A stretch of 64,000 nt of DNA, taken from Rubripirellula sp. (GTDB taxonomy: Bacteria; Planctomycetota; Planctomycetia; Pirellulales; Pirellulaceae). Shown here piece by piece: positions 11,342 through 41,872 of this stretch. The first letter of the stretch is position 1. Every line of letters begins with the position of its first letter. Under the pieces are notes generated by a model. It did not search any database, was not told the origin of the DNA, and saw only the letters and a program-made list of their open reading frames with translations. Position numbers and translations under genes: made by a program. Where the stretch lies: the NCBI GenBank assembly GCA_965216875.1, contig OZ244207.1:7904001-7968000 (forward strand), read 5' to 3'.

Positions 11342-11588
11342 AAACCCTCCGTTGGACCTTGTCCGTTCCGTGACGCGCTCGTGCTGGCTCGCTACGCAGA
11401 AGATGGATCACTTTGATAGCACAATCCTAATGGATGCAGGGTGGGAGTTCTGTGAAGTTTGCGAGGAATGGGGGATTGTCGGGCGTTTGGAGTCCTAGGG
11501 AGTTCCAATGTCGATCGACGTTGACCTGAGCAGCCCGAGCCTGCTATCCGAGGGCAAGACATCCACCACTTGCGGATAAATCAGCCTC

Positions 11589-12773: not shown

Positions 12774-12775
12774 GC

Positions 12776-18040: not shown

Positions 18041-20446
18041 CTATTCCGGCAGATTGTTGCCAGCGAGCGCGGCGCGAAGGTATTCACTTTGCGTTGCGCG
18101 ACAGATGTCAAGCAAATCGTGCGTGTCACGAAGCAGTTCGAGCCACTTGACCTCTTCGGCTTTGGCTTGATCGCCAATGCGTTCTGCGGCAACGGCGATT
18201 TGTTCGATGTCGCAGGTTCTTGCGATCATGCATAATCGCTCGGACAAAGACTGTAACCCTTCGGCATCCTGCGCATCGATAGCTTGCGCCAACCGCTCGA
18301 CTTGGTAGCCGATTTGCAAGGTGGTTTGTTTACGCAGCGAATGTGCTCCCTTAGTGATCGCAGCGTGGCGCATCTCAATTTTCTCCGCAAAGTGCTCAAC
18401 CAATCTTGGGTCGAATTGCGTGCCGGCACAACGCCGCAGTTCCTCGAGTGCTTCCTCGTGCGTTCGGCCTTTCCGATAGACGCGATCGGAAACCATTGCA
18501 TCGTAGCTGTCGGCGATGCTAAGCAACCTCGCGCCCATTGGGATGTTGTCTCCGGTTGGCAAATGCGGGTCGCGAGCTGCGCCGCCATAAAACGCGTGAT
18601 GCGTTGAAATGATGGAGGTCAATTCCGGGCAATCAAATGCGCTGGCGATGATCTCGACGCCGATGCGATCGTGTCGCCCCATCAACTCCCATTCGTCCCG
18701 GGTCAGCGGTCCTGGTTTGAGCAGGATGTGATCGGGAACACCAATCTTGCCAATGTCATGAAGCAAGGCGGCGATTTCGAGCACGTAAGTTTGTTCCGGA
18801 TCAAACAGACCATCCGAGACGCGTGCGCAAAGGTCGGCAACACGGCGACTGTGTTCCGCCGTGTTGACATCACGGTAGGAAAGCGCGGAGATTAACGCGG
18901 TGACCGCTTGGTACGGAATGTCAATTCGCTTGGCCGGTTTATCTTCGGTCGCCTGATCGATCATCTCAGCCATGCTGGTGTTGTAGACGATCACGCGGTT
19001 TCGTCCTTCACGTTTTGCCACGTAAAGGCAAGCGTCGGCTTGGTTGATCAAATCTTGCGGGTCGGTCGGATCAAACCGCAACTCCGAAACACCCATACTG
19101 GCCGAAAGTTTGAGGTCGGCGGGGTCTTCGAGAACGATGTCCATGATTGCCAGCCGCGTTTTCTCGGCTTCAGCCGACGCACGTTCGACATCAAATCCGG
19201 GCAACAGCACACAGAATTCTTCGCCACCGTAGCGGCAGACCAGTCCATGGTGTTGATGCATTTCGCGAATCGTCTTCGAAACGCGCCGCAAGACTTCGTC
19301 ACCGGTATGGTGGCCGTACGTGTCGTTGACGCTCTTGAAGTGGTCGATGTCCATCATCAAGCAGGAAAGCGGCACGTTTGACTTGCCAGCTTCGGCCCAC
19401 AGCCGATCAAAGCGTTCGAAGAACGCGCGTCGGTTCAAGCAACCAGTCAACGCATCTTGCGTCGCCAAGATTTCGAGTTCGCTGTTTTTGCGTTTGATTT
19501 CATCGCGGCTGCTTCGCAGCAAGCTGAGCATCTTTTCCAGCTCCGCGCGGTGCTCCTCGATATGCGTGACATCGCGGAACGTCGCGAGCGCCCCGCGTTG
19601 CGACCGATCTTTTCCAAGCGGTGCGGCATTGACCGAAAAGATCCGTTGGGTCGTGTCACTGCTTGCATATCGCAGCATGTGTTCGGATTGCACTTCGAAG
19701 TTGTCGATGGCACGCAGCCAGGGAAACTCGATCGTTTCGTTTTCTGCGGTGACCCAAGCGAGGTCACTGGCAAGCTTCCCGGCAAGCTCTTCAGGGGTTT
19801 TGCGAACGGTGTCGGCAAACGCACGATTGGCCAAGACGATCCGTCCGTCCTCGTCGAGCACCAAGAGTCCCTCGGCAAGTGTGTCCAATGCTTGTCGAAC
19901 ACGCTCGGGAACCACCTGAGTGTTGTTGAACAGTTTCAGTACGCGAACCACGAAAAACGTGTAACCAAAAACGCCGGTGATACAGAAGAACGCGACCAAC
20001 CTCAGCAGCGGATGGTGCATCGCCTGTTCGAACGCCGTCCCGTGGGGTTTTTTGTAGCAGATTTCGACATCCCCCCAGGGACGCCGGTTCAGCGTGATCG
20101 GTACTTGGACCGCTTCGACGCGCGTGTCTTCTTTTTCGCGGGTGGGCCAAATCTCGGCGTGATGGCCCGTATCGACGCGCAAGGTTCCCAGATCACTGCG
20201 CAGACCGATCGACAAGATGTCGCTGTTGCGGTCAACCAGCGTCTCGAGCGTGACCTGCAAGTCCGACCATTGCTGTTTGCGGACATGAGCGGCGACGTTG
20301 ACCGCGATGGTTTCGCTGATCGATTGGCGCGCATGGGCAACGACAGGCGCGGAATCGGGAACAAACCCGAACCAGTGCGCCCCAAGGATAAGGCTGGCGC
20401 CGACGCAAACGAGTGCGACGGCCAACCTCAGCGATGCGAAGTACAT
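18041..20446 (-). CDS. Membrane-anchored PAS-GGDEF-HD-GYP c-di-GMP enzyme with Hpt-like tail
   Basis: Two TM segments, PAS (LVLDEDGRIVLAN), DALTGCLNRR, DIDHFKSVNDTYGH, RYGGEEF, HSRRV, LLHDIGK, ADSYDAM, GTQFDP. Start placed at ATG 20446 because the track's extension to 20764 reads through a repeat element. Confidence 0.88.
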   Translation of the reverse strand: MYFASLRLAVALVCVGASLILGAHWFGFVPDSAPVVAHARQSISETIAVNVAAHVRKQQWSDLQVTLETLVDRNSDILSIGLRSDLGTLRVDTGHHAEIWPTREKEDTRVEAVQVPITLNRRPWGDVEICYKKPHGTAFEQAMHHPLLRLVAFFCITGVFGYTFFVVRVLKLFNNTQVVPERVRQALDTLAEGLLVLDEDGRIVLANRAFADTVRKTPEELAGKLASDLAWVTAENETIEFPWLRAIDNFEVQSEHMLRYASSDTTQRIFSVNAAPLGKDRSQRGALATFRDVTHIEEHRAELEKMLSLLRSSRDEIKRKNSELEILATQDALTGCLNRRAFFERFDRLWAEAGKSNVPLSCLMMDIDHFKSVNDTYGHHTGDEVLRRVSKTIREMHQHHGLVCRYGGEEFCVLLPGFDVERASAEAEKTRLAIMDIVLEDPADLKLSASMGVSELRFDPTDPQDLINQADACLYVAKREGRNRVIVYNTSMAEMIDQATEDKPAKRIDIPYQAVTALISALSYRDVNTAEHSRRVADLCARVSDGLFDPEQTYVLEIAALLHDIGKIGVPDHILLKPGPLTRDEWELMGRHDRIGVEIIASAFDCPELTSIISTHHAFYGGAARDPHLPTGDNIPMGARLLSIADSYDAMVSDRVYRKGRTHEEALEELRRCAGTQFDPRLVEHFAEKIEMRHAAITKGAHSLRKQTTLQIGYQVERLAQAIDAQDAEGLQSLSERLCMIARTCDIEQIAVAAERIGDQAKAEEVKWLELLRDTHDLLDICRATQSEYLRAALAGNNLPE

Positions 20447-20683
20447 TTTGCCCAAGGTGGTTCTGCGCTTTTTAGCAGACCTACGTTTGGCCCCCCGCGC
20501 GCGCAAAGAGCCTTTATGCAAGTTTTGCTCATCGACAAATCGAACGTCGCAGAAATGCCATGGTCCATCGACAGTGGTGGGAAACCTTCGCGGGTTGTAC
20601 CGATTGTGATGGCTGATTCCGATCGAGCGGGGGAGAACGCGCGAACGGGGGCGTGGTGGGGAGGTGGGAAGAGAAGTGAATCG

Positions 20684-20787
20684 GGGACTCGTGCCGTAGT
20701 GGACGAGGCCACGAGTCCCTTCGAGCCCACCGTGCAACGATGAGGGACTCGTAGCCTCGTCCACTACGGGAATTCGTCCACTACGGG
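20684..20787. repeat. GTAG-type REP-like inverted repeat with partial extra copies
   Basis: CCGTAGTGGACGAGGCCACGAGTCCCT (20694-20720) inverted at 20743-20769 with 1 mismatch; partial copies at ~20684-20693 and ~20774-20787. Confidence 0.85.
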
Positions 20788-20794
20788 AGCGTCG

Positions 20795-23700
20795 TTATCC
20801 CAGGAAGCGATCGAGGCCGTCTTTGCCGCGCGCGGTTCGGTAGGCGGTCAGCAACGAGGTTGGGTCAATCATTCTCCAGGCCGGCATGCTCGAGGCGACC
20901 GCCGTCATGAACGCTCCGCCGCGCAGCGCCCACAGCACGTAGCCGACTGAAAAGACGCCCGCGCCTGCGCCCGCCGTTCCGACGAAGTAACTCATCGGTG
21001 TCTGACCAAAGTCCTCCTGAGCTTCGTCCCACTGTTGCCAAACGATCGCCTGTTCCATGTCGAGATGCAGGAGTCGTTCGAGCATTTCGATTTCGGCCGA
21101 ATACTGTTGCGAGGAGAATTCAAGTCGGGACAGGTCGCCGGAGTAGCCTCGAGAAGCAGCTTCCATCGCTGCGTCACGCAGACGCTTCGCAGCGTTCGCG
21201 CGTTCCTCTTCAGGGCTCATGTCGCCTGGCATGCGCTCCTTAGCGGCTCGTTCTTTTGCCGAGATCGATTGAGGCGCGACTCCTACCGTCGTGCCCGAAT
21301 CGGCCGGGCTCTCATCACCATCAAGTGAATCGTCCTCGGTTTCAGGTTCTGGATCCGGTTCCGGATCGGGTTCTGGATCCGGCTCGGGATCAGGTTCTGG
21401 CTCGGGATCCGGTTCGGGGTCAGGGTCTGGTTCAGGATCCGGATCGGGCACACCGCCGATCACGGTGATCTCGACAGTAACGATGTTCCCTAGCAGTGAT
21501 CCGTCGCTCACTTGGTAGGTGAGCGTGTCGACGCCAACGAAGCCAGCGTCGGAGGTGTAGTTGATGGTTCCGTTGGCCAGCACTGTCACGTTGCCGTGAG
21601 TCGGTGGGGTGACCAAGATCGCCATCATCGGATCCCCTTCGGGATCAAAGTCATTGACCAAGACTCCCGGCGTCCCGACCACCATTGAACTGCCACTTGT
21701 CGTGCTGTAGCTATCGTTGTTGGCGATCGGCGCTTCATTCACGTCGGTGATGTTGATCGAAAAAACGCCGTCGCTGAACGAGCCGTCACTGCTGGTCGCT
21801 CTTACGGTGATGTTGTGGCTGGTGTCGGTCTCGTGATCAAGTCCGCCCACCACGGTGACGACGCCACTTGCCGAATCAATTGCAAACCGCCCACCGGCGC
21901 TGTCAGCAAGCGAGTAGGTGATCGAGTCCGATGCGTCGGGATCGATTGCGGATCCTGTGATGCCGACCACTGTGCCGGTGATCGCGTTTTCAGCAACCGA
22001 ATTGGCCGATCCGTCGACGTCACTGACGGAACCGACGGGTGACTCGTTCACATCGTTGATCGCGATCACAAACACCGATGTGGTCGAAGATCCATCGCTG
22101 CTCGTGCTGCGAACGGTAATGTTGCGACTGGCCCCATCGAGCTCGCGGTCGATGGAACCAGCAACGGTCACCACACCTGAATTGAGGTCGATTGCGAAGC
22201 GGCCTCCATCGTCGTCATCCAGCGTGTAGGTCACATTGTTGTTGGTTGCATCTGCGTCGGACGCCGAGGCGGTGATGCCGACCGTCGTTCCGACCGTCGC
22301 GTTTTCGTTCACGTTGTTGCCGGTGGCATCGATGTCGGTGGTCGAGGAAACCGCGAACTCATTCACATCGCCGATGCTGATCGTAAATGATTGGGTTTGG
22401 AAGGAACCATCAGTCGATGTTGCGCGCACGGTGATGCTTCGCGTTGCTCCATCCAGCTCGCGATCAATCGCGCCCGCGACGGTGACGATTCCCGAATTCA
22501 GGTCGATCGCAAAGCGACCACCGTCGTTATCATCAAGTGTGTAAGTGACCGTGTCGCCAACGTCGAGATCGTCTGCGAAGGCCGTCACGCCAACCGTGGC
22601 GCCGATCGTGCTGTTTTCGAGGACAAAGTCGGCGCCGCCATCGCTATCCGAAACGGATGTGATCGCGTTGTCGTTGATTAGTGTGATCGCAATGTTAAGC
22701 GTGCCCGTTGCGGGGACCGCGCCGTCCTCGCCGCCGTCAGCAAGTGAGAAACTAAAGGCATCGCTATTGGTTTCCGTGCCATCGTGGTCGTAGGTGACCA
22801 ACCCAGCGTCAATGTCGGCCTGGGTGAACGTGTCGTTGAGTCCCAAGGCACCAAAACCAGCGAGGAACAGCGTGCCGTTGTCGGTCACATTGGTGATGGT
22901 GTAGGTCAAGCCAGCGCCGGCGTCATCCACATCGCTCTCGGCAAGCATCGCTGTTGTGATGGTATTGCCCGTCGATCCTTCAACGAAGGTCGGTCCGTTA
23001 AGAATCACCGTTGGCGAGTCGTTAACGGCGGTGATGTCGACACTGATGCTGCCCAGATCGATGTCCGTTCCGCCGCCAGCACCGGTGTTGCCGTTGTCGT
23101 TGATTTCGACTTGAATCGAATCGGCGCCCACACCGTTCAAGTTCAATGTGGTGTGTTGGTAGCTCAGGTTGGATGTGTTGTTGAAATAGGTGTTCAGGTC
23201 GGTAAGCGTGCCGGTGAGGGTGATCGCAGACGGCGTTCCGCCAAGAGTGATCCCGGCCATGGTTGCGGCGGTCAGATTGCCCCCAGTGCTGGTGCTTAAC
23301 GTGACCGTCAACAAGTCGCTCGCACCTGCGTCGATGTCGGCAAAGTCGACAGCCGACAAATCGATACTCGTTGCTGCGTCTTCAGTGACCGTGACGCTTG
23401 CTGGTAGTGAACCATCGTTGGTTGGGTCGTTGTTGACGCCGCCAATGTCGACCGAAACACTTCCCAAATTGATGTCGGTTCCGCCGCCGGTACCGGTGTT
23501 TCCATTGTCGTTAATTTCAACCTGAATCGAATCGGCACCCACGCCGCTTGTGGCGGGAACCGAGTGAAGGTAGCTGAGGTTCGACGTGTTGTTGAAATAG
23601 GTGTTCAGGTCAGCGAGTGTACCGGTGATCGTCAGTGCCGAAGGTGTCCCACCGAAGCTGATGCCGGCCATCGCGGCACCTGACAAGTTTCCGCCAGTGC

Positions 23701-26700
23701 TGGTGGTGAGGGTGACGGTAAGCGTGTCGCTCACGCCAGCGTCGATATCGCCGAAGTCGACTGCGGATAAGTCGATGGTCGATGAAACATCTTCAATGGC
23801 TGAAACCGTCGCGGGCAGTGATCCATTGTTGGTTGGGTCGTCGTTGGTTGCCGTGATGTCGACGGCAACACTTCCCAAATCGATGTCGGTCCCGCCACCG
23901 GTGCCGGTGTTTCCGTTGTCGTTGATTTCAACCTGAATCGAATCGGCGCCCGAGCCGTTGGTGTTTGACGTCCCGTGCAGGTAGCTCAGGTTCGACGTGT
24001 TGTTGAAATAGGTGTTCAGGTCGGCGAGCGTACCGGTAATCGTGAGTGCCGTCGGAGTTCCACCGAAGGTGATGCCGGCCATCGCGGCAGCTGACAGATT
24101 CCCGCCCGTACTCGTGGTGAGGGTGACAGTGAGCGTGTCGCTTCCACCAGCGTCAACGTCGGCGAAGTCGACGGCAGAAAGATCGATCGTTGTCGAGACG
24201 TCTTCGGTCACCGTCACGCTTGCTGGCAGCGATCCATCGTTGGTCGGGTCGTCGTTGACACCGGAGATGTCGACCGAAACACTTCCCAGGTCGATGTCGG
24301 TTCCACCACCAGTACCGGTGTTTCCGTTGTCGTTGATTTCAACCTGAATCGAATCGGCGCCCGAGCCAAAGGTGTTAGCAGTGCCGTGCAGGTAGCTGAG
24401 GTTCGACGTGTTGTTGAAATAGGTGTTCAGGTCAGCGAGTGTACCAGTGATCGTCAGTGCCGAAGGTGTCCCACCGAAGCTGATGCCTGCCATCGCAGCA
24501 CCCGACAAGTTTCCGCCGGTGCTGGTGGTCAGAGTGACAGTGAGTGTGTCACTGCCACCGGCGTCGATGTCGGCGAAGTCAACCGCGGATAGGTCGATGG
24601 TGGTCGAAACGTCTTCGGTCACCGTCACGCTTGCTGGCAGTGAACCATCGTTGGTTGGATCGTCGTTGGTTGCCGTGATGTCGACGGCAACACTTCCCAA
24701 ATCGATGTCGGTCCCGCCACCGGTGCCGGTGTTTCCGTTGTCGTTGATTTCAACCTGAATCGAATCGGCGCCCGAGCCGTTGGTGTTTGACGTCCCGTGC
24801 AGGTAGCTGAGGTTCGACGTGTTGTTGAAATAGGTGTTCAGGTCGGCGAGCGTACCGGTAATCGTGAGTGCCGTCGGAGTTCCACCGAAGGTGATCCCGG
24901 CCATCGCAGCACCTGACAAGTTGCCGCCCGTACTCGTGGTGAGGGTGACAGTGAGCGTGTCGCTTCCACCAGCGTCAACGTCCGCAAAGTCGACGGCAGA
25001 CAAGTCGATGGTGGTTGACATGTCTTCGGTGACGGTCACGCTTGCTGGTAGTGATCCGTCGTTGGTCGGATCGTCGTTGACACCCGAAATGTCGACCGAA
25101 ACACTTCCCAGATCGATATCCGTTCCACCACCGGTACCAGTGTTTCCGTTGTCGTTGATTTCAACCTGAATCGAATCGGCGCCGGTTCCAAAGGTGTTAG
25201 CAGTGCCGTGTAGGTAGCTGAGGTTCGACGTGTTGTTGAAATAGGTGTTCAGGTCAGCGAGTGTGCCGGTGATCGTGAGTGCCGTCGGAGTTCCACCGAA
25301 GCTGATGCCTGCCATTGCAGCGCCTGACAGATTCCCGCCCGTGCTGGTGGTGAGGGTGACGGTAAGCGTATCACTGCCACCGGCGTCGATGTCGGCGAAG
25401 TCAACCGCAGACAAGTCGATGGTGGTCGAAACGTCTTCGGTGACCGTGACGCTTGCTGGTAGGGATCCGTCGTTGGTTGGGTCGTCGTTGGTCGCGGTGA
25501 TGTCGACGGCAACACTTCCCAGATCGATGTCGGTTCCGCCGCCGGTACCGGTGTTTCCGTTGTCGTTGATTTCAACTTGAATCGAATCGGCGCCCGATCC
25601 GTTGGTGTTTGACGTCCCGTGTAGGTAGCTGAGGTTCGACGTGTTGTTGAAATAGGTGTTCAGGTCAGCGAGCGTGCCGGTGATCGTGAGCGCCGTCGGA
25701 GTTCCACCGAAGGTGATGCCAGCCATTGCGGCAGCTGACAGATTCCCGCCCGTACTCGTGGTGAGGGTGACTGTGAGTGTGTCGCTTCCGCCAGCGTCAA
25801 CGTCCGCGAAGTCGACCGCGGAAAGATCAATCGTCGTCGAAACGTCTTCGGTCACCGTCACGCTTGCTGGCAGCGTTCCATCGTTGGTCGGGTCGTCGTT
25901 GACACCGGAGATGTCGACCGAAACAGTTCCCAAATCGATGTCGGTTCCACCGCCGGTACCGGTGTTTCCATTGTCATTGATTTCAACCTGAATCGAATCG
26001 GCGCCGGTTCCAAAGGTGTTAGCAGTGCCGTGCAGGTAGCTGAGGTTCGACGTGTTGTTGAAATAGGTGTTCAGGTCGGTGAGCGTACCGGTGATGGTTA
26101 GCGCTGTCGGAGTCCCACCGAAGGTGATTCCAGCCATCGCAGCACCTGACAAGTTTCCGCCAGTGCTGGTGGTCAGAGTGACAGTGAGTGTGTCACTGCC
26201 ACCGGCGTCGATGTCGGCGAAGTCAACCGCGGACAAGTCGATGGTGGTTGAAACATCTTCGGTGACCGTGACACTTGCTGGCAGTGAACCATCGTTGGTT
26301 GGATCGTCGTTGGTTGCCGTGATGTCGACGGCAACACTTCCCAAATCGATGTCGGTCCCGCCACCGGTGCCGGTGTTTCCGTTGTCGTTGATTTCAACCT
26401 GAATCGAATCGGCGCCCGAGCCGTTGGTGTTTGACGTCCCGTGCAGGTAGCTCAGGTTCGACGTGTTGTTGAAATAGGTGTTCAGGTCGGCGAGCGTACC
26501 GGTAATCGTGAGCGCCGTCGGAGTTCCACCGAAGGTGATGCCGGCCATCGCGGAAGCTGACAGATTCCCGCCCGTACTCGTGGTGAGGGTGACTGTGAGT
26601 GTGTCGCTTCCGCCAGCGTCAACGTCCGCGAAGTCGACCGCGGAAAGATCAATCGTCGTCGAAACGTCTTCGGTCACCGTCACGCTTGCTGGTAGTGATC

Positions 26701-29700
26701 CATCGTTGGTCGGATCGTCGTTGACAGCAGAGATGTCGACCGCAACGCTTCCCAGATCGATGTCGGTTCCACCACCGGTGCCGGTGTTTCCGTTATCGTT
26801 GATTTCAACCTGAATCGAATCGGCGCCTGATCCAAAGGTGTTAGCAGTGCCGTGCAGGTAGCTGAGGTTCGACGTGTTGTTGAAATAGGTGTTCAGGTCA
26901 GCCAGCGTACCGGTGATCGTGAGTGCGGTTGGTGTCCCACCGAAGGTGATGCCGGCCATCGCAGCACCTGACAGATTCCCGCCCGTGCTGGTGGTGAGGG
27001 TGACGGTAAGCGTGTCGCTACCGCCGGCGTCGATGTCGGCGAAGTCAACCGCGGACAAGTCGATGGTGGTTGAAATGTCTTCGGTCACCGTGACACTTGC
27101 TGGCAGTGAACCATCGTTGGTTGGATCGTCGTTGGTTGCCGTGATGTCGACGGCAACACTTCCCAAATCGATGTCGGTCCCGCCACCGGTGCCGGTGTTT
27201 CCGTTGTCGTTGATTTCAACCTGAATCGAATCGGCGCCCGAGCCGTTGGTGTTTGACGTCCCGTGCAGGTAGCTCAGGTTCGACGTGTTGTTGAAATAGG
27301 TGTTCAGGTCGGCGAGCGTACCGGTAATCGTGAGTGCCGTCGGAGTTCCACCGAAGGTGATGCCGGCCATCGCGGCAGCTGACAGATTCCCGCCCGTACT
27401 CGTGGTGAGGGTGACAGTGAGCGTGTCGCTTCCACCAGCGTCAACGTCGGCGAAGTCGACGGCAGAAAGATCGATCGTTGTCGAGACGTCTTCGGTCACC
27501 GTCACGCTTGCTGGCAGCGATCCATCGTTGGTCGGGTCGTCGTTGACACCGGAGATGTCGACCGAAACACTTCCCAGGTCGATGTCGGTTCCACCACCAG
27601 TACCGGTGTTTCCGTTGTCGTTGATTTCAACCTGAATCGAATCGGCGCCGGTTCCAAAGGTGTGCGGCGTCCCGTGAAGGTAGCTCAGGTTCGACGTATT
27701 GTTGAAATAGGTATTCAGGTCAGTGAGCGTACCGGTGATGGTTAACGCTGTCGGAGTTCCACCGAAGGTGATGCCTGCCATTGCCGCACCCGACAGATTC
27801 CCGCCGGTGCTGGTAGTGAGGGTAACGGTGAGTGTGTCACTGCCACCGGCGTCGATGTCGGCGAAGTCAACCGCGGACAAGTCGATGGTTGTCGAAACGT
27901 CTTCGGTCACCGTCACGCTTGCTGGTAGGGATCCATCGTTGGTCGGATCGTCATTGGTCGCCGTGATGTCGACGGCGACACTTCCCAAATCGATGTCGGT
28001 CCCGCCGCCAGTGCCGGTGTTTCCATTGTCGTTGATTTTAACTTGAATCGAATCGGCGCCCGAGCCGTTGGTGTTTGACGTTCCGTGCAGGTAGCTGAGG
28101 TTCGACGTGTTGTTGAAATAGGTGTTCAGGTCGGCGAGCGTACCGCTAATCGTGAGCGCCGTCGGAGTTCCACCAAACGTGATCCCGGCCATTGCCGCAC
28201 CTGACAAGTTTCCGCCCGTACTCGTGGTGAGGGTAACTGTGAGTGTGTCGCTTCCGCCAGCGTCAACGTCCGCGAAGTCGACCGCGGAAAGATCGATCGT
28301 TGTCGAGACGTCTTCGGTAGCCGTCACGCTTGCTGGCAGTGATCCGTCGTTGGTCGGATCGTCGTTGATACCCGAAATGTCAACCGAAACAGTTCCCAGG
28401 TCGATGTCGGTTCCACCACCGGTGCCGGTGTTTCCGTTGTCGTTGATTTCAACCTGAATCGAATCGGCGCCCGAGCCAAAGGTGTTAGCAGTTCCGTGCA
28501 GGTAGCTGAGGTTCGACGTGTTGTTGAAATAGGTGTTCAGGTCAGCGAGTGTACCAGTGATCGTCAGTGCCGAAGGTGTCCCACCGAAGCTGATGCCTGC
28601 CATCGCAGCACCCGACAAGTTTCCGCCGGTGCTGGTGGTCAGAGTGACAGTGAGTGTGTCACTGCCACCGGCGTCGATGTCGGCGAAGTCGACCGCGGAC
28701 AAGTCGATGGTGGTTGAAACATCTTCGGTGACCGTGACACTTGCTGGTAGGGATCCATCGTTGGTCGGATCGTCATTGGTTGCCGTGATGTCGACGGCGA
28801 CACTTCCCAAATCGATGTCGGTCCCGCCGCCAGTGCCGGTGTTTCCATTGTCGTTGATTTCAACTTGAATCGAATCGGCGCCCGAGCCGTTGGTGTTTGA
28901 CGTTCCGTGCAGGTAGCTCAGGTTCGACGTGTTGTTGAAATAGGTGTTCAGGTCGGCCAGTGTGCCCGTAATCGTGAGTGCCGTCGGAGTTCCACCAAAC
29001 GTGATCCCGGCCATTGCAGCAGCTGACAAGTTGCCGCCGGTGCTGGTGGTGAGGGTGACGGTAAGCGTGTCGCTTCCACCAGCGTCAACGTCCGCGAAGT
29101 CGACGGCCGACAAGTCGACGGTAGTCGAAACATCTTCGGTAACCGTCACGCTTGCCGGTAGTGATCCGTCGTTGGTCGGATCGTCGTTGACACCGGAGAT
29201 GGTGAATGTGAACGTCCCTGTGTGGGGTGACGAACCGCCTTCGCCGCCATCAGCAAGCGAGAAGTCAAAGCTATCGGTCGACGCCTCGCCGCCGGCGTGA
29301 TCGTAGGTGACATTGCCAGCGTCGATATCTGCTTGGGTGAATGTGTCGTTGAGTCCGAGTGCGCCGAATCCGGAGAGGAACAGGGTGCCGTGGTCGGTGA
29401 CATTGGTGACCGTGTAGGTGAGGTCCGATCCATCGTCATCCGGGTCACTCTCATTGAGCATCGCGGTCGTGAGCGTGTTGCCGGAAGAACCTTCCACGAC
29501 GGTCGCGCCGTTGTTGATGACCGTTGGCGACTGGTTTGGCGTGATGGTGATGTTGTCTGCAAATTCAGAGGTCGCACCGTACGCTGCCAAGTCGTCGACG
29601 CCGACCATGCCAGGAGCTTCGATTTCGGTTGCCGTCGCAGTGACATAATCACCGATCGCGAGGGTGACTCCCGAGATCGTTTGTGCACTAAACGAGGCGT

Positions 29701-32700
29701 CGCCACTGCCATCAGTTGTGACGGTCAGTGTACCGAGGAAAGTGTTGGCTTCCCCGTTGGTTGGGTCTTGCGAACCCGAAGCATTGCCGTAGAAATCGAT
29801 TCGGTAGGAGGTCGAGGCGACGCCCGTGTTCAAGCTTCCCGTAACGATGAGGTCGGTGCCAATCAGGCTCGCGATGGTCAGCAACGGAAAGTTCAACAGG
29901 TCATTGGCGCCAGTGTCACCGTCACCCGAATCGTTTGCGGTGACGCCGTCGTCACCCAGGTCGATTCCCAGGCCAGTATTGGAATGAATGGTGTTGCCAA
30001 GGAGCGTGGCTTCGGAGTCGCCGGTTGCCGCAATTCCGTCTTGCCCATTGTTCGCAATCAGGTTTCCTGCGCCCGCTGTCGTTCCACCGATTAGGTTGCC
30101 TGTCCCACCGTTGGCGTCGTCGATCAAGACACCGCTGCCGGTGTTCGCAAGCGCGGTCGTGCCATCGGCAGCCGTCCCGATGTAGTTACCTTGAACGACG
30201 TTGTTGGATCCGTCGATCGCGACGCCCCACGAGTTGTTTCCTGAGATCACGTTGCCTTCACCGGCGCCATCGCCACCCAGGGTGGTGCTGTCACCACTAA
30301 TCAACACGCCACCCCAAGCACCGATTCCGGCTTGACCGTTAGCAATCGCAGTCGTGCCATCGAAGTTCGTTCCGATGTAATTGCCTTGGATGGTGGTTCC
30401 CGTGACTCCGGCGCCGATCTCAATGCCTTCGTCGCCGTTGCCCGAGATCACGTTGCGATCCGATGCGTTGGTTCCGCCGATCACCGTGTTGTTGGCGCTA
30501 CTAGAAACGTGAATGCCGTCCGATCCATTGCCAACGGCGGCAGTCCCGGCCTGATTCAAACCGATGTAGTTGCTTCGAATTACATTTGCGGTACTCGAAG
30601 CTCCCGAGACGAGAATACCGTGTCCGGTGTTGCCAGAAATGACATTGCGAGCGGCGGTCGATCCGCCGATTGTATTGCTGTTGGCGCCCGACAGAATCTC
30701 GACGCCGTGGGTGGAGTTGGCGATCGCCCCCGTGCCATTGAGGTTCAAGCCAATGTAGTTGCCTTGAACGAGAGTCGCCGTCGTTGCAGCCCCACTGAGC
30801 GAGATACCGGCGAGCGTGTTGCCCGAAATCACGTTGCGATGATTTGCGGTGGTGCCCCCGATCGTGACGGCAGCTGTTTCAGAGACTTCGATCCCCGCGC
30901 CGCCATTGCCGAGGTCGGCCAGGCCGGTCGAGTCCGTTCCGATCAAGTTACCGGTGATCGTCGTTCCCGATCCGCCGCTTGAAATCGAGATCCCGGCGCC
31001 GGTGTTGCCCGAAATCACGTTCGCCGCTCCGGCGCTCAACCCGCCGATCGTTGTATTGGTCGCACCGGCACTCACGTGAACACCAGACAAACCGTTCGCA
31101 TAGGCCGTTGTGCCATCGTTGCCGATCGTGTTTCCTTCGATGACCGTGCCAGTGACGGGAACCGTGTGCGTCCCGTTGGTGGTTCCATCGACGAAGATCC
31201 CGTGCCCGGCGTGATTGCCGATGAGGTTGCCTTGGCCAGCACTGGGGCCACCGATTCGGTTGTTATCCGAACCGAGGCTGACAAGGATGCCATGACCAGC
31301 GGTAGCCGCTGCGGTGACGCCGTCCGCAAGGAATCCAATGATGTTGCCTTCAACAATGTTGTTGTCTGAATTGTTGAAGATCACAATCGACGCAAAGCCA
31401 GCGTTCGTACCCGCGATCACGTTGGCTTCGTTGACACCAGCGCCACCGATTTGATTGTTGCTGGCGCCCCAGGCCATCATGATGCCATGCTCGGCATTGC
31501 CATGGACGTTGTTTTCTAGGTCGATACCAACCCAGTTGTTTTGGACGGTGTTATTGTCGCCACCGTGAAGCTCAATGCCTTCATCAGGGGAACCGTGAAC
31601 CGAGAACCCTTTGATCGTGCTGTTGCTCGCACGCACATTGAAGATGGCATCGCCCGAAGCCATGCTTGACGCGTCAATCTCGATCACAGGCCGACCCGTT
31701 CCCGCGTTGTATCCGGACTGTGTGGTCGCATCGATGATCACCGAGTCGGTGATGTCGCCAAGGAAGGTCGATTGATTGATTTCCCAATACTCGTCCCCGT
31801 TGGCGGGGATCGCGTCCGGGTCAACGTAGCCAGCATCTGAGGTGCTGATGTCGAAATAGATCTCGTCGGGGCCGCCGTTGTTTGTGGTGTTGTTGGCGGC
31901 CTGGATCGCTTCGATCAGCGAGATCTCGCCATCGGCACCGCGGTCAAGCAACAGAGCCGAGATGGAGCTGGTGTCACCGTCGGCTTGGTCACTTGTCGTT
32001 GTCACATACAGGCGTGATTCCCAAGTCCCGCCAAATTGCACGTTTCCAAACAAGCTCGGGTTGGACCAGGCCCACGACGTTTCATCGTTCCATAAGAGGT
32101 GTCCATCGCGTGCTCCACCGTCGTCGTCATCATTATGCTGGACGTCGATGCCAATGAACTGGCCCTCGTTGGGCGTGATGCCAAGGGTCGACCAAGGAAC
32201 TTCAACCTCGAAAACGCCTGAGCCTCCCGATTCATTCATGACCCAAGAGACACCCGTCGTGTCGGTCACCGAACCGCTCGCTACTGTGAGCGCGCCATCG
32301 GATACTTGAAAAACAACGTGGAAGTCATCGACTAGATCGTAGTCCGAGTTGCTGCTGAAGTCGGGGTTGATGTAAAGCTCGATCGAGTCGTCGTCCCATG
32401 GATTGGTCGAGTCGTCGACGATCACGTCATCGGTGAATTCCACCAGGACATACAGGTGCGTGTCGGTCGCCATTGCACGCCATGACGATGTCAAGTCAGC
32501 GCCGTTGTCGATCGTTCCATTCTGGTGAGTGATGGAATGTGTGGTAACGTTCGACCAGGCCGCATCGACCGTTCCGTCGACGGTCGGTCCTGAGGCCGCG
32601 ATGTTGAGCTGAGCATCAGCGAAGATCGGCATCAAAGCCAAACTGTGAATTTCTTCGTCTGCCGTATCCAGATCCATTTCGTTGCCGGCAAGCAACATCG

Positions 32701-34963: not shown

Positions 34964-35306
34964 CAAGTGTGCAGCTTCATACACACTGCACCAATCAAAA
35001 CTTAGGTCACTTTCGGACCACCGGTGGGGGATTTACTGGTTCAATCGGAATGTTGCGAAATTGGCGATGGTGCGGAACGACACAATCCGCTCATAGTCAA
35101 TCGCTCCCCCCATGCTAAGGACGCTGCGAATCTGTAGGGCTTGGGGTTCTTCTGCGGCCTTTGCCGAATGCTCATGCCGTATCAGTCTTGCGCACGCAAT
35201 TTCGGCACAGACCGTGCCACCGATACTGGGGATCGAACCGATGAGCGAATGGAGGGGCTGCGCGTAGCCACAGGTCTGCGCGTCCGCCATAGGGGTACGA
35301 AAACAT

Positions 35307-37148
35307 TTGTGGGCAGAAATGTTTAGCCGGCGAATGCGCAAAATGGTCTACACGGCGGTGATCGTTGCGGTTGCAACGATGCCAATGTGGTTCTGCGCGC
35401 ACTCGGTACATGCCCAAACACGATTGCCGGCTGTGGCTCGGCCCGTGAAACTGCCCGCCGTGAAACCCAGCGGCGCGGACAGCTCGGCGGCGACTCCTAC
35501 CTTCATTGCCAGCACCGATTCCACGAGGTTGGATTGGTGGAACGAGAAGGTGAGCGCAAGTTTGCTCGACCAGCCGCGCTGGGTCACCTTTGATCTGCAA
35601 ACCGTCTTGCTCGATACGCTTACCATGAGCCCCCGCATCAAGGGCGTCTCACAACGGACCAGCGTTGCACTCGAACAAATCGTCCAGCAGGACGCGGCAT
35701 TCGATCCGTCGATTCTGTTTGATGGAAAGATCGGACGAACGAATGATCCCGTTGGCAACTCACTCATTACGGGCGGACCTCCAAGGTTGATCGAAGAGTC
35801 CTTGACGTTGCGCGGGGGTATGCAGCGAACGACTCGTCGAGGCACCGAGATCAATCTCAACCAAGAGATCGGACTGCTCGACAGTAACAGCAACTTCTTC
35901 GAGCCGGCACGACAAGCCAACGCGCGACTGAGTTTGAGTTTGACGCAACCACTCCTGGGACGCGGTGGGCGGGTCTATAACGAGCGTCTTTTGACGCAAG
36001 CACGGATCGACAGTAAATCGAGTTGGCAAGAAATGCGTGGCGAGGTCGAAAACCGCATTGCGGAAGTGATCGATGCGTATTGGCGACTCTACGAGCTCCG
36101 CTGCCAATGGATGCAGCAACATGAACTGCTTAAACGCGGCAAGCGGATCGAGGACATCTTGCAGGGACGTGAGGAGTTCGACGCGTCACGCATCGAGCTT
36201 GCCAAAGCACGCGGTCGCGTTGCACGTCGCGTCGATCGCCAGTTGCTGATCGAAGCGGAAATCCAGAAACAACAATCAAGGCTGGCGTCGTTGGTCGGAA
36301 GCGAAGAGCTGGCGATGGCCGATGGGCAATTGGAAATGATCCCGTTGCAATCGCCCGTGATCCCAGCGATCGATATCGAACTTCGCGACGCGGTCGTGCG
36401 TGGGATCGAAAACCGCCCCGAAATCCGGGTCGCTACCGCGGATTTGGAATCGGCAGCGCTGGCAATCGAAGTCACACGGACTGAGCTGATGCCCGAATTG
36501 ACCGGCATCATCGACACTTACTTGATGGGGCTCAATGGTCGTTACAACGTTGGCGAGTCGCTCACCGATCAATTCACTCGCGGCGGTCCTGGCATCTCGG
36601 CCGGACTTCAGTACGAGTTGCCGCGCGGTAGGCGTGCGGCTCGCTCGCGCCACCGCGAGGCGCATCATCTGTACCAGCAACGCAGTGAAGAGCTGCGTGA
36701 AACGATCCAGCTTGCCCGCGCCGAGATCGAAACGGCTTTGATCAACGCCAACCTGGCCCTTGCCCAACAACAAACCAAACGTCGCCTGTTGACCACCGCG
36801 ATGGAAGAGGAAACCGTGCTGACACGTCGTTGGGAAATGATGGGTGGTGACGGGGCAGCCGTCGGTACGGTGCTCGAAAACCTACTCGACGCCCAGCAGC
36901 GTCGGACCGATGCAGAGCGTGAGTGGACAACCGCCCAGATTCGCTACCTGACGTCGCTTGTGGAATTGCAAAGGGCGATGGGGACACTCTTGATTCGCGA
37001 AGGCATTCAACCGATTCGCAGTCATTGCGACAACTCGATTGAGTTCATTCATTCGCAAGCCGGCGAAAAACCGCTTCATACGACTCCCGTTCCGGAAATT
37101 TCGAAAGAGCAATTTGACGCTCTGATCAACGACGAGGTGACTCGATGA
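35307..37148 (+). CDS. TolC family outer-membrane efflux protein
   Basis: Signal-like N-terminus; LSLTQPLLGRGG, AYWRL, ENRPEI, LLDAQQRR..YLTSLVELQRAMGTLL. Start may be 35334-35343. Confidence 0.88.
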   Translation: MWAEMFSRRMRKMVYTAVIVAVATMPMWFCAHSVHAQTRLPAVARPVKLPAVKPSGADSSAATPTFIASTDSTRLDWWNEKVSASLLDQPRWVTFDLQTVLLDTLTMSPRIKGVSQRTSVALEQIVQQDAAFDPSILFDGKIGRTNDPVGNSLITGGPPRLIEESLTLRGGMQRTTRRGTEINLNQEIGLLDSNSNFFEPARQANARLSLSLTQPLLGRGGRVYNERLLTQARIDSKSSWQEMRGEVENRIAEVIDAYWRLYELRCQWMQQHELLKRGKRIEDILQGREEFDASRIELAKARGRVARRVDRQLLIEAEIQKQQSRLASLVGSEELAMADGQLEMIPLQSPVIPAIDIELRDAVVRGIENRPEIRVATADLESAALAIEVTRTELMPELTGIIDTYLMGLNGRYNVGESLTDQFTRGGPGISAGLQYELPRGRRAARSRHREAHHLYQQRSEELRETIQLARAEIETALINANLALAQQQTKRRLLTTAMEEETVLTRRWEMMGGDGAAVGTVLENLLDAQQRRTDAEREWTTAQIRYLTSLVELQRAMGTLLIREGIQPIRSHCDNSIEFIHSQAGEKPLHTTPVPEISKEQFDALINDEVTR

Positions 37149-39681: not shown

Positions 39682-39694
39682 GGATTCTATTTCT

Positions 39695-41872
39695 GTGAAT
39701 CGAGAATCAAGCGAAACGAACGCACCTTCGACACCGCCACCGATGCGCGTGCGTCTCGATTCGACAGTGACCTTCTCGCAGCGAACTACCGGTGCGCAAA
39801 CGCTGTATGTTGCATATCACGCGGGGCTCGGCAAGTATTTTCAGTTTGGTGCCGAAGAGCATCACATTGCTTCCTTGCTCGATGGCAATCGCACGATTAC
39901 CGACGTCCTGCTTGCACTTCAAGAGGCGGGGATTCAATGGGATCCTCGAGATGTCGCCGAGTTCATCTCGAGGATGGTGGCAAGCAAACTCGCAACCACG
40001 GTCGAAAGTGAATCCACGGCGACGGGACTTGCTGAACCAACACCGACCAAGTCTTCAGGCGATGTGGCCTCAAAGGTTTGGAACGTTCACTTGCCAAAAC
40101 TGCTGGCGCACATTGTTTCTCAGCGGTTTCCGTTGATGAATGGCCAACGTGTCGCGATCGCACTGGAACGACGTTTTGGATCTCTTTTCGATCTGACTGG
40201 CATGGCTTGCTGGGTCATGCTCGTCTTCAGTGGGCTTTTGATTGTCTACGGAAACGCGAACGCGTTTGCCGCCGAATTGAGACGGATGTTTGATCCGAGT
40301 CTGTGGCTGGTGTTGATCGCGATGTGGATTGTTGCCAAAGCGATCCACGAAGCGGGGCATGCGATTGCGGCAAGACATCATGGCGTCAACGTTGGCAAGG
40401 TGGGCGTGATGTTGTTCTTTCTCGCCCCGTTGGCTTACGTCGACGTGACCGACGCATGGAAACTACGCAGTCGATGGCAACGCGTGCAGATCGCCCTGGG
40501 CGGCGTGTATCTCGAAATCGCGGTGGCCGCGATCGCTGCGTGGGTATGGTGGATGTTGCCCGCTGATGCTGCGCTTGCAAAACACCTGGCGGCTCAGTTT
40601 TTCTTGATCGCAGGGCCCGCAACCTTGTTGGTCAATGCGAACCCGTTGTTGCGTTTAGACGGATACTATGTCCTGTCGGACCTGACCGAGATTCCCAATC
40701 TTCGTATGCACGGTCGGCAACAGTTGACTGGCTTGATCCAATTCCTGCTACTTCGCATCCCTCGGCCGACACCGCTCCTGCAAGGATGGCGGCGACGTTT
40801 CGCCACGACGCATGCTCTTCTAAGCGTCGTTTTTCAGATCGTTTGGATGGGCGGTCTAATCGTTGCCGTTTCGATGTGGGCCAAAGGAGTTGGGCTGATC
40901 CTGGCCGGCTCGGCATTCGCTCTATGGTGTGTGATTCCGTTGACACGGACCACGTTGCGGCTGTGGTTGAAGGAACCAGGCGAAGGCTGGTTGAGACTTA
41001 ACGATACCCGACGACGACTGCTTGGACTTGCGAGTTTGATTCTGGTTCTGACTCAATACCTTTGCGCGGCTCGGTCGCCGCTCGATCGCCGTGTCCCCGT
41101 CATCGTTCGTTATCGGAACGAGCAGATCGCTCGGGCGACGGCGGATGCCTTCGTTCGCAACGTCTATGTCACCTCGGGGCAACGCATCAAACGTGGCATG
41201 TTGGTTGCCGAGCTCGAGGATGCGGAATTGGGGGTGCGTCGAAACCAGAAGTCCGACGAGCTTGTGATCGCCGAATTGAAGGCGATCCAACATCGACGAT
41301 TGGGGCAACACGCCCTCGCCGCGGCTCAAACCGAACATGCGGCGAGCCTAAAACGGCAACTTGCCGAACTCGATGCCCAACTGACCGGGCTACGCGTGAT
41401 CGCTCGGCGCGACGGGATCGTGATCGGTTCGCATATCGAGAATCTCGAAGGCGCGTTTGTTGCGGAGGGCCAGGAGCTGTTGCGAATTTGCGATCCGCAA
41501 GAAAAGGAACTGCTGGCGTCCGTTCCAGAGCAAGACATGCAGGCGTATCAAGAGATCGTCGAGAAGGATGTGACAACCGAAGTACGGCTGCGTGGTGGGA
41601 CGATTGTACGTACGGTTCCGGCGTCTCTGCGCCCGCGAGCACGCCGCCGTTTGCCTCACCCTGCCCTCGCCGCAACCGCGGGCGGTCCGCTCGCGGTCGA
41701 ACCGTCGCCCGACGATGATACTGAGCTGAGGACGGTCTTGCCGAGACTTGAGAGTGTGACGAAGCTTGACCCCGTCACGAGCGTCGAGATTCGGGCGGGT
41801 CAAATCGGAACGATGATGATTTCCGACAATCGTTCGCTGGTTTCAAGAATGTTCGACTCTTTGCGCCGTTGA
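39695..41872 (+). CDS. PqqD-like / M50 (site-2) metallopeptidase / HlyD-like fusion protein
   Basis: YFQFGAEEHHIASLLDGNRTI (PqqD/RRE-like); IHEAGH (HExxH); AYVDVTDAW; NANPLLRLDGYY; C-terminal biotinyl-lipoyl/hairpin VTSGQRIKRG..IARRDG. Start GTG 39695 or ATG 39743. Confidence 0.85.
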   Translation: MNRESSETNAPSTPPPMRVRLDSTVTFSQRTTGAQTLYVAYHAGLGKYFQFGAEEHHIASLLDGNRTITDVLLALQEAGIQWDPRDVAEFISRMVASKLATTVESESTATGLAEPTPTKSSGDVASKVWNVHLPKLLAHIVSQRFPLMNGQRVAIALERRFGSLFDLTGMACWVMLVFSGLLIVYGNANAFAAELRRMFDPSLWLVLIAMWIVAKAIHEAGHAIAARHHGVNVGKVGVMLFFLAPLAYVDVTDAWKLRSRWQRVQIALGGVYLEIAVAAIAAWVWWMLPADAALAKHLAAQFFLIAGPATLLVNANPLLRLDGYYVLSDLTEIPNLRMHGRQQLTGLIQFLLLRIPRPTPLLQGWRRRFATTHALLSVVFQIVWMGGLIVAVSMWAKGVGLILAGSAFALWCVIPLTRTTLRLWLKEPGEGWLRLNDTRRRLLGLASLILVLTQYLCAARSPLDRRVPVIVRYRNEQIARATADAFVRNVYVTSGQRIKRGMLVAELEDAELGVRRNQKSDELVIAELKAIQHRRLGQHALAAAQTEHAASLKRQLAELDAQLTGLRVIARRDGIVIGSHIENLEGAFVAEGQELLRICDPQEKELLASVPEQDMQAYQEIVEKDVTTEVRLRGGTIVRTVPASLRPRARRRLPHPALAATAGGPLAVEPSPDDDTELRTVLPRLESVTKLDPVTSVEIRAGQIGTMMISDNRSLVSRMFDSLRR

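Follow-up and report, generated by a model that had tools for sequence, protein, structure and literature searches.

An RRE-M50-MFP Operon as the Candidate Leader-Guided Export Machine of an Adjacent Giant DUF4347 Protein in Rubripirellula sp.

We analyzed a stretch of 64,000 nucleotides of Rubripirellula sp. (Planctomycetota; contig OZ244207.1, positions 7,904,001 to 7,968,000; the whole stretch is hereafter called the window), which lies within a complete chromosome of 8.26 Mb. The window harbors a four-gene operon coding for a TolC-family outer-membrane factor, two membrane fusion proteins (MFPs, i.e., periplasmic adaptors) and a protein in which a RiPP recognition element (RRE; RiPP, ribosomally synthesized and post-translationally modified peptide), an M50 site-2 protease and a further MFP domain are fused; a gene encoding a giant adhesin-like DUF4347 protein is transcribed divergently from it. 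In our opinion, the operon probably processes and exports the adjacent giant as a leader-guided machine, being one of six paralogous, envelope-spanning machines of this genome. Behind this reading stand the computed gene content and folds, the conservation of catalytic residues and of the linkage, the co-occurrence data, and a co-fold whose controls were passed. The module itself is already in print as a computational observation; the link of the leader and of the giants to it appears to be new in the literature searched.

Organization of the Operon and of the Giant Gene

The features discussed here are listed in Table 1. A previous reading of the window, made from the sequence only, had described a packed TolC/MFP/MFP/M50-HlyD operon with ATGA overlaps and a 13-nt gap, and the operon is organized exactly in this way: the overlaps lie at 37145 and 38137, and the TAG of the third gene (39679-81) is followed, after 13 nt, by the GTG at 39695. 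The TolC open reading frame (ORF) likely starts from the ATG at 35319, after which a hydrophobic, signal-like segment (residues 13-31) is found; its matches to TIGR01845 and TIGR01844 are under the cut-off. The short MFP has an N-terminal anchor or signal (hydrophobic segment 30-48). The long MFP consists of an N-terminal part of about 250 residues, one transmembrane segment (254-272, counted from the ATG at 38137) and the MFP domain. The Pfam search did not retrieve any match, GAF included, for its N-terminal part; when the N-terminal parts of long MFPs were compared with those of GAF-HlyD proteins by hhalign, a probability of 68% and an E-value of 4.8e-5 were obtained over only 66 columns. 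In this operon, the long MFP would take the place that GAF-HlyD proteins have in other modules. The short MFP, the long MFP, and the fusion protein all have Pfam and NCBIfam matches as MFPs, and their anchors were located.

The fusion protein starts either from the GTG at 39695 or from the ATG at 39743; its paralogues align from about 39743, and its residues are numbered here from the Met at 39743. Pfam and NCBIfam searches of the four operon proteins revealed no ATPase domain, in agreement with the sequence-only reading. A dedicated ATP-binding cassette (ABC) transporter, proper to type I secretion, is likewise missing from the operon, which does possess the MFP and the TolC-family factor of such systems.

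The giant gene and the TolC gene are 320 bp apart. The sequence-only reading had also noted a divergent DUF4347 protein of about 4720 residues, with neither a Sec signal nor RTX repeats, followed by a cyclic di-GMP (c-di-GMP) enzyme. Both observations hold: no hydrophobic N-terminal segment is present, GGxGxD motifs number 0 in 4729 residues, and a PAS-GGDEF-HD_5 ORF (likely start, ATG 20446) lies on the same strand, 30 nt from the 3' end of the giant gene, with which it is probably co-transcribed. The giant contains only four cysteines in 4729 residues, and its domains are DUF4347 (residues 111-280, 158 bits), LamG, a CBM9-like domain, a beta-helix-like region, cadherin-like domains, 15 repeats of 137 residues, a Pro/Asp/Glu linker, and a conserved, Gly-rich, hydrophobic C-terminal domain. 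The repeats are encoded by a tandem array (23052-29189; 411 bp x 14.9 copies, 83% matches), which on the other strand also gives rise to a series of spurious 111-aa ORFs.

A basic stretch followed by the motif LE-x-R-x-(L/M/V)(L/F) is shared by all seven DUF4347 proteins of the genome; in the giant, the motif reads LEDRVLL. The C-terminal domain is common to three of the seven and to the giants of two more distant loci (L029 and L041, see below), and could represent an anchor or a second sorting signal. This domain (20798-21217, minus strand) is weakly hydrophobic, below a simple transmembrane threshold, and bears the motifs GY-x-x-WA-x-R-x-G and PAW-x-x-x-DP.

Table 1. Features of the window, with the related modules and genes located elsewhere on the chromosome (window coordinates unless marked as genome).
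Feature	Coordinates	Strand	Evidence or content
Giant adhesin-like protein	20795..34984	-	4729 codons, 4722 from ATG 34963
LEDRVLL leader motif, basic stretch before it	34853..34873	-	N-terminus of the giant
OEP/TolC-family outer-membrane factor	35307..37148	+	PF02321, 77.3 bits, two stretches; 613 codons
Short MFP (periplasmic adaptor), 331 aa	37145..38140	+	TIGR01730 RND_mfp, 132 bits (cut-off 94.9); HlyD_D23, HlyD_3
Long MFP, 514 aa	38137..39681 (ORF from 38041)	+	HlyD_D23, 58.5 bits; HlyD_3, 47.4 bits
RRE-M50-MFP fusion	39695..41872 (ORF from 39590)	+	Peptidase_M50 (PF02163), 35.2 bits (cut-off 27.2); HlyD_3, 27.3 bits; HlyD_D23
N-terminal RRE/PqqD-like domain of the fusion	39743..40003	+	Residues 1-87, compact; modelled alone, pLDDT 91.3
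HEAGH zinc-binding motif, M50 domain (residues 202-206)	40346..40360	+	
C-terminal periplasmic MFP domain of the fusion (residues 449-709)	41087..41869	+	Foldseek against the PDB: MexA, AcrA, MacA, EmrA, E to 6.9e-11
Membrane-bound PAS-GGDEF-HD-GYP (HD_5) protein	18041..20764	-	GGDEF, 147 bits; HD_5, 82 bits; PAS
Second DUF4347 protein, 1586 aa	6581..11341	-	DUF4347, 161 bits; NF012209, 20.5 bits, above the cut-off
Module B	genome 7468744-7477532		TolC, truncated SecA, MFP, MFP, M50-MFP
Orphan truncated SecA (locus L098)	genome C1:7640010-7642295	-	DEAD, PPXD, NBD2

Domains and Fold of the Fusion Protein

An alignment of 62 homologous sequences was used as the input for an AlphaFold model of the fusion protein (pLDDT 91.1, pTM 0.76). 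In the model, a disordered linker (residues 91-107) connects the compact N-terminal domain to a polytopic membrane region (residues 108-442; helices in 134-442, nine hydrophobic segments). The HEAGH motif is followed, about 100 codons later, by a second motif, NPLLRLDG, which contains Asp 306; H202, E203, H206, and D306 are invariant in all 62 aligned homologues. The protein thus has both the HExxH motif and the second-motif Asp that serves the M50 family as third zinc ligand, and its modelled polytopic core shows a hairpin (219-233) after the HExxH helix. Foldseek with the whole model against the PDB retrieved MFP matches only, through the C-terminal part. The nearest NCBIfam model is NF041824, the daptide intramembrane metalloprotease (151 bits, cut-off 300), and NF058609 (YydH/LiaK) scored 41.8 bits, also under its cut-off.

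As for the N-terminal domain, its best Foldseek matches in the PDB are all RREs. The first six ranks are occupied by lasso peptide B1 proteins with a bound leader (TM-score 0.59-0.75; 0.67-0.75 for TbiB1 and another lasso B1 protein; TbiB1 with its leader, 0.70/0.75, E 1e-4), and the other RREs retrieved include TruD/LynD, TigE, PbtF, and MccB, with PqqD (5sxy) at rank 17. By sequence, the Pfam PqqD model gave sub-threshold matches in six out of ten family members and none on the domain from the window. The label "PqqD-like" of the sequence-only reading is appropriate for the fold, the RREs being the best PDB matches. The domain has the winged-helix fold of RREs, with three strands and three helices, and leader binding is predicted for it. 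Domain matches, fold, and model together describe an RRE-M50-MFP fusion, with a leader-binding domain that is predicted to sit in the cytoplasm and an adaptor predicted to be periplasmic.

Predicted Docking of the Leader to the RRE and M50 Domains

For the co-fold, residues 1-445 of the fusion protein (RRE and M50) were paired with the 60 N-terminal residues of the giant, an alignment being supplied for both chains. The ipSAE values were 0.70, 0.68, and 0.71, and the best of three controls reached 0.00. In the calibration of the tool, the corresponding mark was reached by 116 out of 157 solved complexes and by two out of 215 mismatched pairs, counts that hold only roughly since our own alignments were used. 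The pLDDT of the partner was 51-54, and the runs share at least 48% of the contacts.

The confident interface comprises residues 22-39 of the leader, that is, the eight residues preceding the motif, LEDRVLL itself and the NG that follows. These residues contact strand 31-36 and helix 66-81 of the RRE, which form the usual groove of such domains, and also the M50 site (H202/E203/H206, hairpin 228-236, 304-306, 309, and 318-322). As a prediction, the co-fold supports leader binding rather than showing it.

Conservation of the Gene Neighborhood

From at least 595 confirmed relatives of the fusion protein, 80 loci were surveyed, and their ORFs were labelled by using the proteins of this genome as queries. 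The resulting counts are lower bounds, since the flanks extended to at most 10 kb and many contigs were shorter. A truncated SecA was found in 25 of the 80 loci, a GAF-HlyD protein in 20, a TolC in 15, and a homologue of the ABC ATPases in two, never adjacent. An ORF with both DUF4347 and LE-x-R was located within two genes of the module in eight loci; given how densely DUF4347 genes occur in this genome, the expectation was about 0.4. The sequence-only reading had suggested looking for a linkage of M50-HlyD fusions with DUF4347/LE-x-R giants, SecA, TolC, and GGDEF genes; that with the giants is conserved.

Among the five closest orthologous loci, one (L018), the nearest in which a giant can be seen, repeats the divergent layout of the window, with a giant whose leader is 48% identical. 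In two others (L016 and L017) the giant is missing, and an orthologue of the GGDEF/HD-GYP gene (E 1e-288 to 1e-299) is the immediate divergent neighbor of the TolC gene; the remaining two have unrelated neighbors (L014) or are cut by the end of the contig (L015). In the more distant L029 and L041, a giant with the same C-terminal domain is followed by the GGDEF/HD-GYP gene and then by the module. The conservation of this neighbor suggests c-di-GMP control. In L016, a contig of Roseimaritima sediminicola with 1.05x depth, a 377-aa ORF on the opposite strand and an M50 ORF of 1012 codons replace the two MFPs; this odd gene order is probably due to a sequence error, given such a low coverage.

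Outside the phylum, five loci were extended where the upstream giant ran off, and two of them remain cut by contig ends. The three others belong to a Mesorhizobium, a Halieaceae gammaproteobacterium, and a verrucomicrobial metagenome-assembled genome (G001, G002, and G004, respectively); their giants (frames of 4251-8696 codons) lie directly upstream of MFP-M50(-SecA), and the leader is present in all three whose N-terminus is visible. Giants with a basic stretch and an LE-x-R-x-LL leader adjoin the module in four phyla. The Mesorhizobium giant (L094 and L091, G001:C1 ~2215196-2241000) appeared as one frame of 8696 codons in the search and as two ORFs of 5834 and 2988 codons, overlapping by about 125 codons, which could reflect a frameshift, an assembly error, or two genes.

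Co-Occurrence of the Module and the Leader

The joint presence of the module and the leader was checked in three samples of genomes. The first one comprised 151 gammaproteobacterial genomes from the order of G002 (module at E <=1e-40, leader profile at E <=0.05). The module was present in 41 and the leader in 32; 29 genomes have both, 12 have the module alone, three have just the leader, and 107 showed neither. Of the leader hits without a module, one is in an ORF of 72 codons, another in one of 178 codons, and the third falls below the cut-off. Where both occur, the leader belongs, in 19 genomes out of 29, to a frame of 1667-14672 codons (or to one cut by the contig) that ends or starts at about 0.3-5 kb from the M50 gene; in the other 10, leader and module are separated by more than 60 kb or lie on separate contigs.

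The second sample included 121 alphaproteobacterial genomes from the order of G001: 11 harbor both, six the module only, 11 the leader only, and 93 neither. In 11 genomes the leader occurs in a frame of at least 1000 codons, and 10 of these have the module; a leader-bearing giant adjacent to the module, within about 0.3-5 kb of the M50 gene, is found in four of the 11 genomes that harbor both. In one alphaproteobacterial genome (G157:C1:2956127-2958180), the M50-MFP gene is split into adjacent frames of 382 and 401 codons; the leader profile did not match anywhere in that genome, whose module may therefore be decaying.

The third sample, from the same phylum as the window, consisted of 81 genomes at least 90% complete, probed with NF012209 at E <=0.01. 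Both elements were found in 10, the module only in eight (18 with the module in all), the leader only in none, and neither in 63. With a second profile, derived from 20 of the genome's own leaders, 48 matches were obtained here and no more than five in each of the 80 others from the phylum; it matched 15 genomes, 10 of them with the module.

Fisher's exact test gave p-values of 3e-18, 4e-6, and 2e-8 for the three samples, respectively, which are overstated because related genomes are not independent, few module candidates were scored (just 7-13 first-look candidates per genome), and G001 and G002 had been chosen for having the system. One of the three samples was in a position to contradict the link between module and leader, and it did not.

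Paralogous Modules and SecA Genes

The genome harbors six paralogues of the fusion protein, each within a related module (A-F). Modules A (that of the window) and C are composed of TolC, MFP, MFP, and M50-MFP; module B (Table 1) has in addition a truncated SecA, with genes for histidine kinases and for an HD_5-containing response regulator on its flanks. Modules B and C are headed by paralogues of the TolC of the window. Module F consists of MFP, MFP, and M50-MFP, with a divergent TolC, and modules D and E contain a GAF-HlyD with M50(-MFP). A DUF4347 gene directly adjoins only module A among the six.

The search for the leader motif (LE-x-R-x-LL in the first 160 residues) retrieved 71 ORFs of at least 400 aa, about four of which look false; many of these proteins have 1,500-8,500 aa, with examples in regions 7668-14339, 6626347-6651903, and 8158316-8182954. 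Strong clustering with the modules was not observed in this genome: giants with the leader lie within some 6 kb of modules A and F and of none of the other four. The support for the link comes from other genomes.

Three SecA_DEAD genes are present in the genome: the housekeeping one, the copy of module B, and an orphan of 761 aa, around which no module gene was found within 15 kb. None of the three is in the window. Both extra copies retain the DEAD, the preprotein-binding, and the second nucleotide-binding domains, with no match to the scaffold or wing domains. The sequence-only reading had stated that no SecA paralogue was present; this is correct for the window and not for the genome, where the two truncated copies were found. 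In turn, the absence of an ATPase holds for the operon only, since the genome has both the SecA of module B and the orphan one.

In the tree of the 62 fusion proteins, that of the window groups, with full support, with those of SecA-less loci, beside a clade in which SecA-bearing and SecA-less loci are mixed. The five genomes with orthologous SecA-less operons harbor two to four SecA_DEAD genes each, and in all five there is a copy similar to the orphan (open frames of 713-740 codons). In the gammaproteobacterial sample, 13 of the 41 genomes with the module have a second SecA_DEAD (E <=1e-20), which did not turn up in any of the 110 without a module match, so that the motor gene is a frequent, and not a constant, part of the module. 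G002 has a degenerate SecA-like copy (46 bits). This copy, used as the query on the 28 module-positive gammaproteobacterial genomes without a second SecA, matched only itself; it missed even the housekeeping SecA, and is thus a poor probe, which gives no proof of SecA absence.

Other Features of the Window

The second DUF4347 protein (Table 1), encoded 24 kb from the operon, has a canonical LEPR-XLL leader and could be an additional cargo. The gene for an MMPL-like protein of 1233 aa (RND, i.e., resistance-nodulation-division, superfamily) lies between this gene and that of the giant, at 12776-16477 on the minus strand. The MMPL-like protein was considered as the missing motor and rejected, no homologue being present in any of the 80 loci.

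Two ABC ATPases are encoded 9-13 kb downstream of the operon (50729..52219 and 54700..56370), within sets of the sugar-uptake type and of the MlaE type; the latter is a single plus-strand ORF with an ABC ATPase domain followed by an MlaE permease domain. A nearby ABC partner as a conserved part of the system was also discarded, the homologues in the two loci mentioned above not being adjacent to the module. The window also contains an unusual fusion of CsrA (residues 2-49) with a response-regulator receiver (137-251) in one ORF (5555-6343, plus strand), and more than 2119 aa of a type I polyketide synthase (KS-AT-DH-ER-KR-ACP; 57607-63999, minus strand), the gene of which extends beyond the window.

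Alternative Explanations and Points Against the Proposed Reading

Several points weigh against the operon being an export machine for the giant. M50/site-2 proteases normally cut membrane-embedded helices, and the leader of the giant is not hydrophobic. We know of no M50 protein acting as a protein-conducting pore; the reading thus accounts neither for the passage through the inner membrane nor for its energy source. The docking on the RRE may reflect likeness to the solved RRE-leader complexes of the PDB. Only one of the six modules (A) abuts a leader-bearing giant, a second one (F) has one 5.5 kb off, and the leader proteins, about 50-70, are dispersed along the whole chromosome. Against NF012209, the 24-residue LEPR-XLL profile with a cut-off of 17 bits, the giant reaches only 12.7 bits (E 0.073); from its sequence we would regard it as a divergent variant of LEPR-XLL, which would work like a member of that family although it falls below the threshold.

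As for the co-occurrence, 26 of the 76 module-positive genomes of the three samples have no leader match, and 14 leader-positive genomes have no module match (mostly weak matches within short ORFs, one ORF having 1597 codons). The lineage profile gave weak single or double hits in five module-negative planctomycete genomes. Absences of the module mean only that it was not found, because so few candidates were scored per genome, and a second SecA_DEAD occurs in only 13 of the 41 module-positive gammaproteobacterial genomes, besides the one degenerate copy.

The alternative that survives best, which we nevertheless hold to be unlikely, is one of processing only. The RRE-M50 part would cut the leader, or use it as a checkpoint; the giant would cross the inner membrane through SecYEG with SecA or a truncated SecA; and the MFPs and TolC would provide the outer leg of the route or a tether. 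This would account for the truncated SecA beside the module in 25 of the 80 loci, and for the domains kept by these proteins (a preprotein-binding domain, with no scaffold/wing match); no pore-forming component is evident in the operon, and M50 proteins are not known as channels. However, the leader has no hydrophobic core suited to SecYEG, three anchored MFP-type proteins with a dedicated TolC resemble a continuous duct, and no second SecA was found in most of the module-positive gammaproteobacterial genomes.

It is much less probable that the system serves signalling by regulated intramembrane proteolysis, the M50 protease freeing, on envelope or c-di-GMP cues, a factor that controls the expression of the giants, without handling these proteins itself. 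Signalling is the classical role of site-2 proteases, the GGDEF/HD-GYP neighbor is conserved in the subclade, and module B is flanked by histidine kinases and the HD_5 response regulator; no anti-sigma/sigma pair is conserved beside the modules, though, a fused MFP and a TolC are unexpected for a signalling protease, and the RRE docks the own leader of the giant.

A small RiPP-like peptide, matured and exported by the module beside giants that are there for another reason, is very improbable. The RRE fold and the two sub-threshold protease matches (151 bits for NF041824, 41.8 bits for NF058609) would fit it, but no modification enzymes are encoded in or beside the operon, the only recurrent neighbors are giants with one shared leader (no systematic search for small precursor ORFs was made), and it is the leader of the giant that docks in the co-fold.

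Finally, an ordinary tripartite efflux pump, with an ABC, RND, or MFS (major facilitator superfamily) motor elsewhere, the M50 fusion as a regulator and the giant adjacent by chance, is equally improbable: the MFPs do score best against RND-type adaptor models and the MMPL-like gene is 19 kb away, but this gene has no homologue in the 80 loci, ABC ATPases occur in just two of them, and such a pump would explain neither why leader-bearing giants are linked to the module nor why they co-occur with it.

These data leave the leader-guided export of the giant as the reading that we prefer. The sequence-only reading had imagined a type I-like channel for the giant, with the M50 domain in the inner-membrane slot. 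The giant is indeed a plausible cargo of the operon, by linkage (eight loci compared with about 0.4 expected, and L018), by the leader shared with all three other giants with a visible N-terminus, by co-occurrence, and by the co-fold. What has to be given up is the novelty of the inner-membrane slot, proposed in 2015 (see below), and the absence of an ATPase beyond the operon.

Comparison with Known Systems

In peptidase-containing type I exporters (PCATs), such as colicin V CvaB-CvaA-TolC, the leader is recognized and cut at the inner membrane, and in the LapBCE-LapA system a giant adhesin is exported by the type I route under c-di-GMP control through LapD/LapG. The operon shares with the former an MFP and TolC-family duct and, as proposed here, the cutting of a leader at the inner membrane; it shares with the latter a giant, repeat-rich, nearly cysteine-free adhesin as the candidate cargo and an adjoining c-di-GMP enzyme. 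Unlike type I systems, 78 of the 80 loci have no ABC transporter, and three different MFP-type proteins are present in the operon. Unlike PCATs, the protease is an M50 with an RRE and not a C39, and the encoded motor, if any, is a truncated SecA. Type I and Lap cargoes have an uncleaved C-terminal signal, often with RTX repeats, whereas the conserved element of the giant, the putative signal, is N-terminal, and RTX repeats are missing.

RRE-dependent leader peptidases of RiPP pathways (the daptide M50 protease of NF041824, lasso B1/B2) represent another parallel, in which the RRE binds the leader as a beta-strand and passes it to the protease. Here, in contrast, the substrate would be thousands of residues long, and the protease forms one chain with an MFP domain and would work with a TolC; the score with the daptide model is half its cut-off.

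A conserved locus composed of a secondary SecA_DEAD, Peptidase_M50/HlyD, HlyD, GAF-HlyD, and sometimes OEP was found in silico, in Planctomycetes and elsewhere, by Kamneva, Poudel and Ward (PLoS One 2015; PMC4452313). The sequence-only reading had mentioned a link of such gene sets to secondary SecA_DEAD genes in planctomycetes, rightly, as that article shows. The same authors proposed that SecA_DEAD is the ATPase and that the M50 membrane protein is a pore replacing the membrane part of the ABC transporter (PMC4452313). The M50 protein in the inner-membrane slot is thus their own proposal and not a new one, so that the core of the earlier inference on this window was already in print as a hypothesis. 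No cargo is named in the article (the words "giant", "adhesin", and "cargo" are absent, and "substrate" occurs once, in a general sense), RRE domain and leader are unmentioned, and no functional experiment is reported (PMC4452313). The operon of the window has the same protein families, with an M50 protein with HlyD, a further HlyD and an OEP, but neither a SecA_DEAD gene nor a recognizable GAF domain; in the tree, its M50 protein falls together with module proteins of SecA-bearing loci. Module B is a textbook example of that locus.

On the side of the cargo, giant surface proteins of 4,000 to more than 36,000 residues are said to occur in many phyla without known export signals, and those of Chlorobium chlorochromatii have LEPRxLL N-termini and no known transport signals, according to the parts consulted of bioRxiv 10.64898/2026.03.19.712371. 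In Omnitrophota, giants contain truncated SecA domains, which have been suggested to act in giant export (bioRxiv 10.1101/2023.11.21.568195, consulted in part); there the SecA domains are inside the giant itself, whereas here the truncated SecA is a separate gene. The consulted parts of the two preprints do not connect the leader with the M50/MFP module. No paper tying the LEPR-XLL leader or the giants to the module was found in the literature searched, though supplements may list neighboring giants. Beyond the published module, the present work describes a stable subclade of operons without SecA, a genome in which six modules coexist with dozens of leader-bearing proteins, a c-di-GMP enzyme as a conserved partner, co-occurrence data from three samples, and a controlled co-fold of a cognate leader and RRE-M50 pair.

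Proposed Mechanism and Conclusions

The mechanism that we infer covers leader binding, cleavage, transport direction, pore, energy source, and regulation. The machines would act on giants that start with a basic stretch and LE-x-R-x-LL, the cargo here being the adjacent DUF4347 protein. The cytoplasmic RRE would bind the leader as an added beta-strand, and the LE-x-R segment would thereby reach the active site of the M50 domain (HExxH/Asp) and be cleaved there. The fusion protein, through its periplasmic MFP domain, and the two other MFPs would bridge to the TolC-family channel, through which the giant, unfolded and nearly cysteine-free, would leave the cell. The motor of this operon would probably act in trans, being either a truncated SecA paralogue or the housekeeping SecA, and the GGDEF/HD-GYP neighbor would exert c-di-GMP control.

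In a broader perspective, which we put forward tentatively, as possible rather than probable, this would be a distinct, ABC-independent type of secretion present across several phyla, based on the LEPR-XLL tag and on an RRE-M50 gatekeeper placed in a hetero-oligomeric MFP ring under TolC, with the N-terminus-first export of the largest known bacterial proteins. Six machines would serve the 50-70 or so leader proteins of this genome, those without a SecA of their own sharing the orphan SecA as the motor, and the export of this adhesin would be gated by a dedicated c-di-GMP enzyme.

If the LEPR-XLL leader does address the giants to an RRE-M50-MFP-TolC machine, the gap in the export signals of these proteins would be closed, and a new secretion route would be defined. 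It would rely on a short, transferable tag, for which both a recognition domain and a region of cleavage are predicted, and would represent the first tripartite-type duct without an ABC, RND, or MFS motor.

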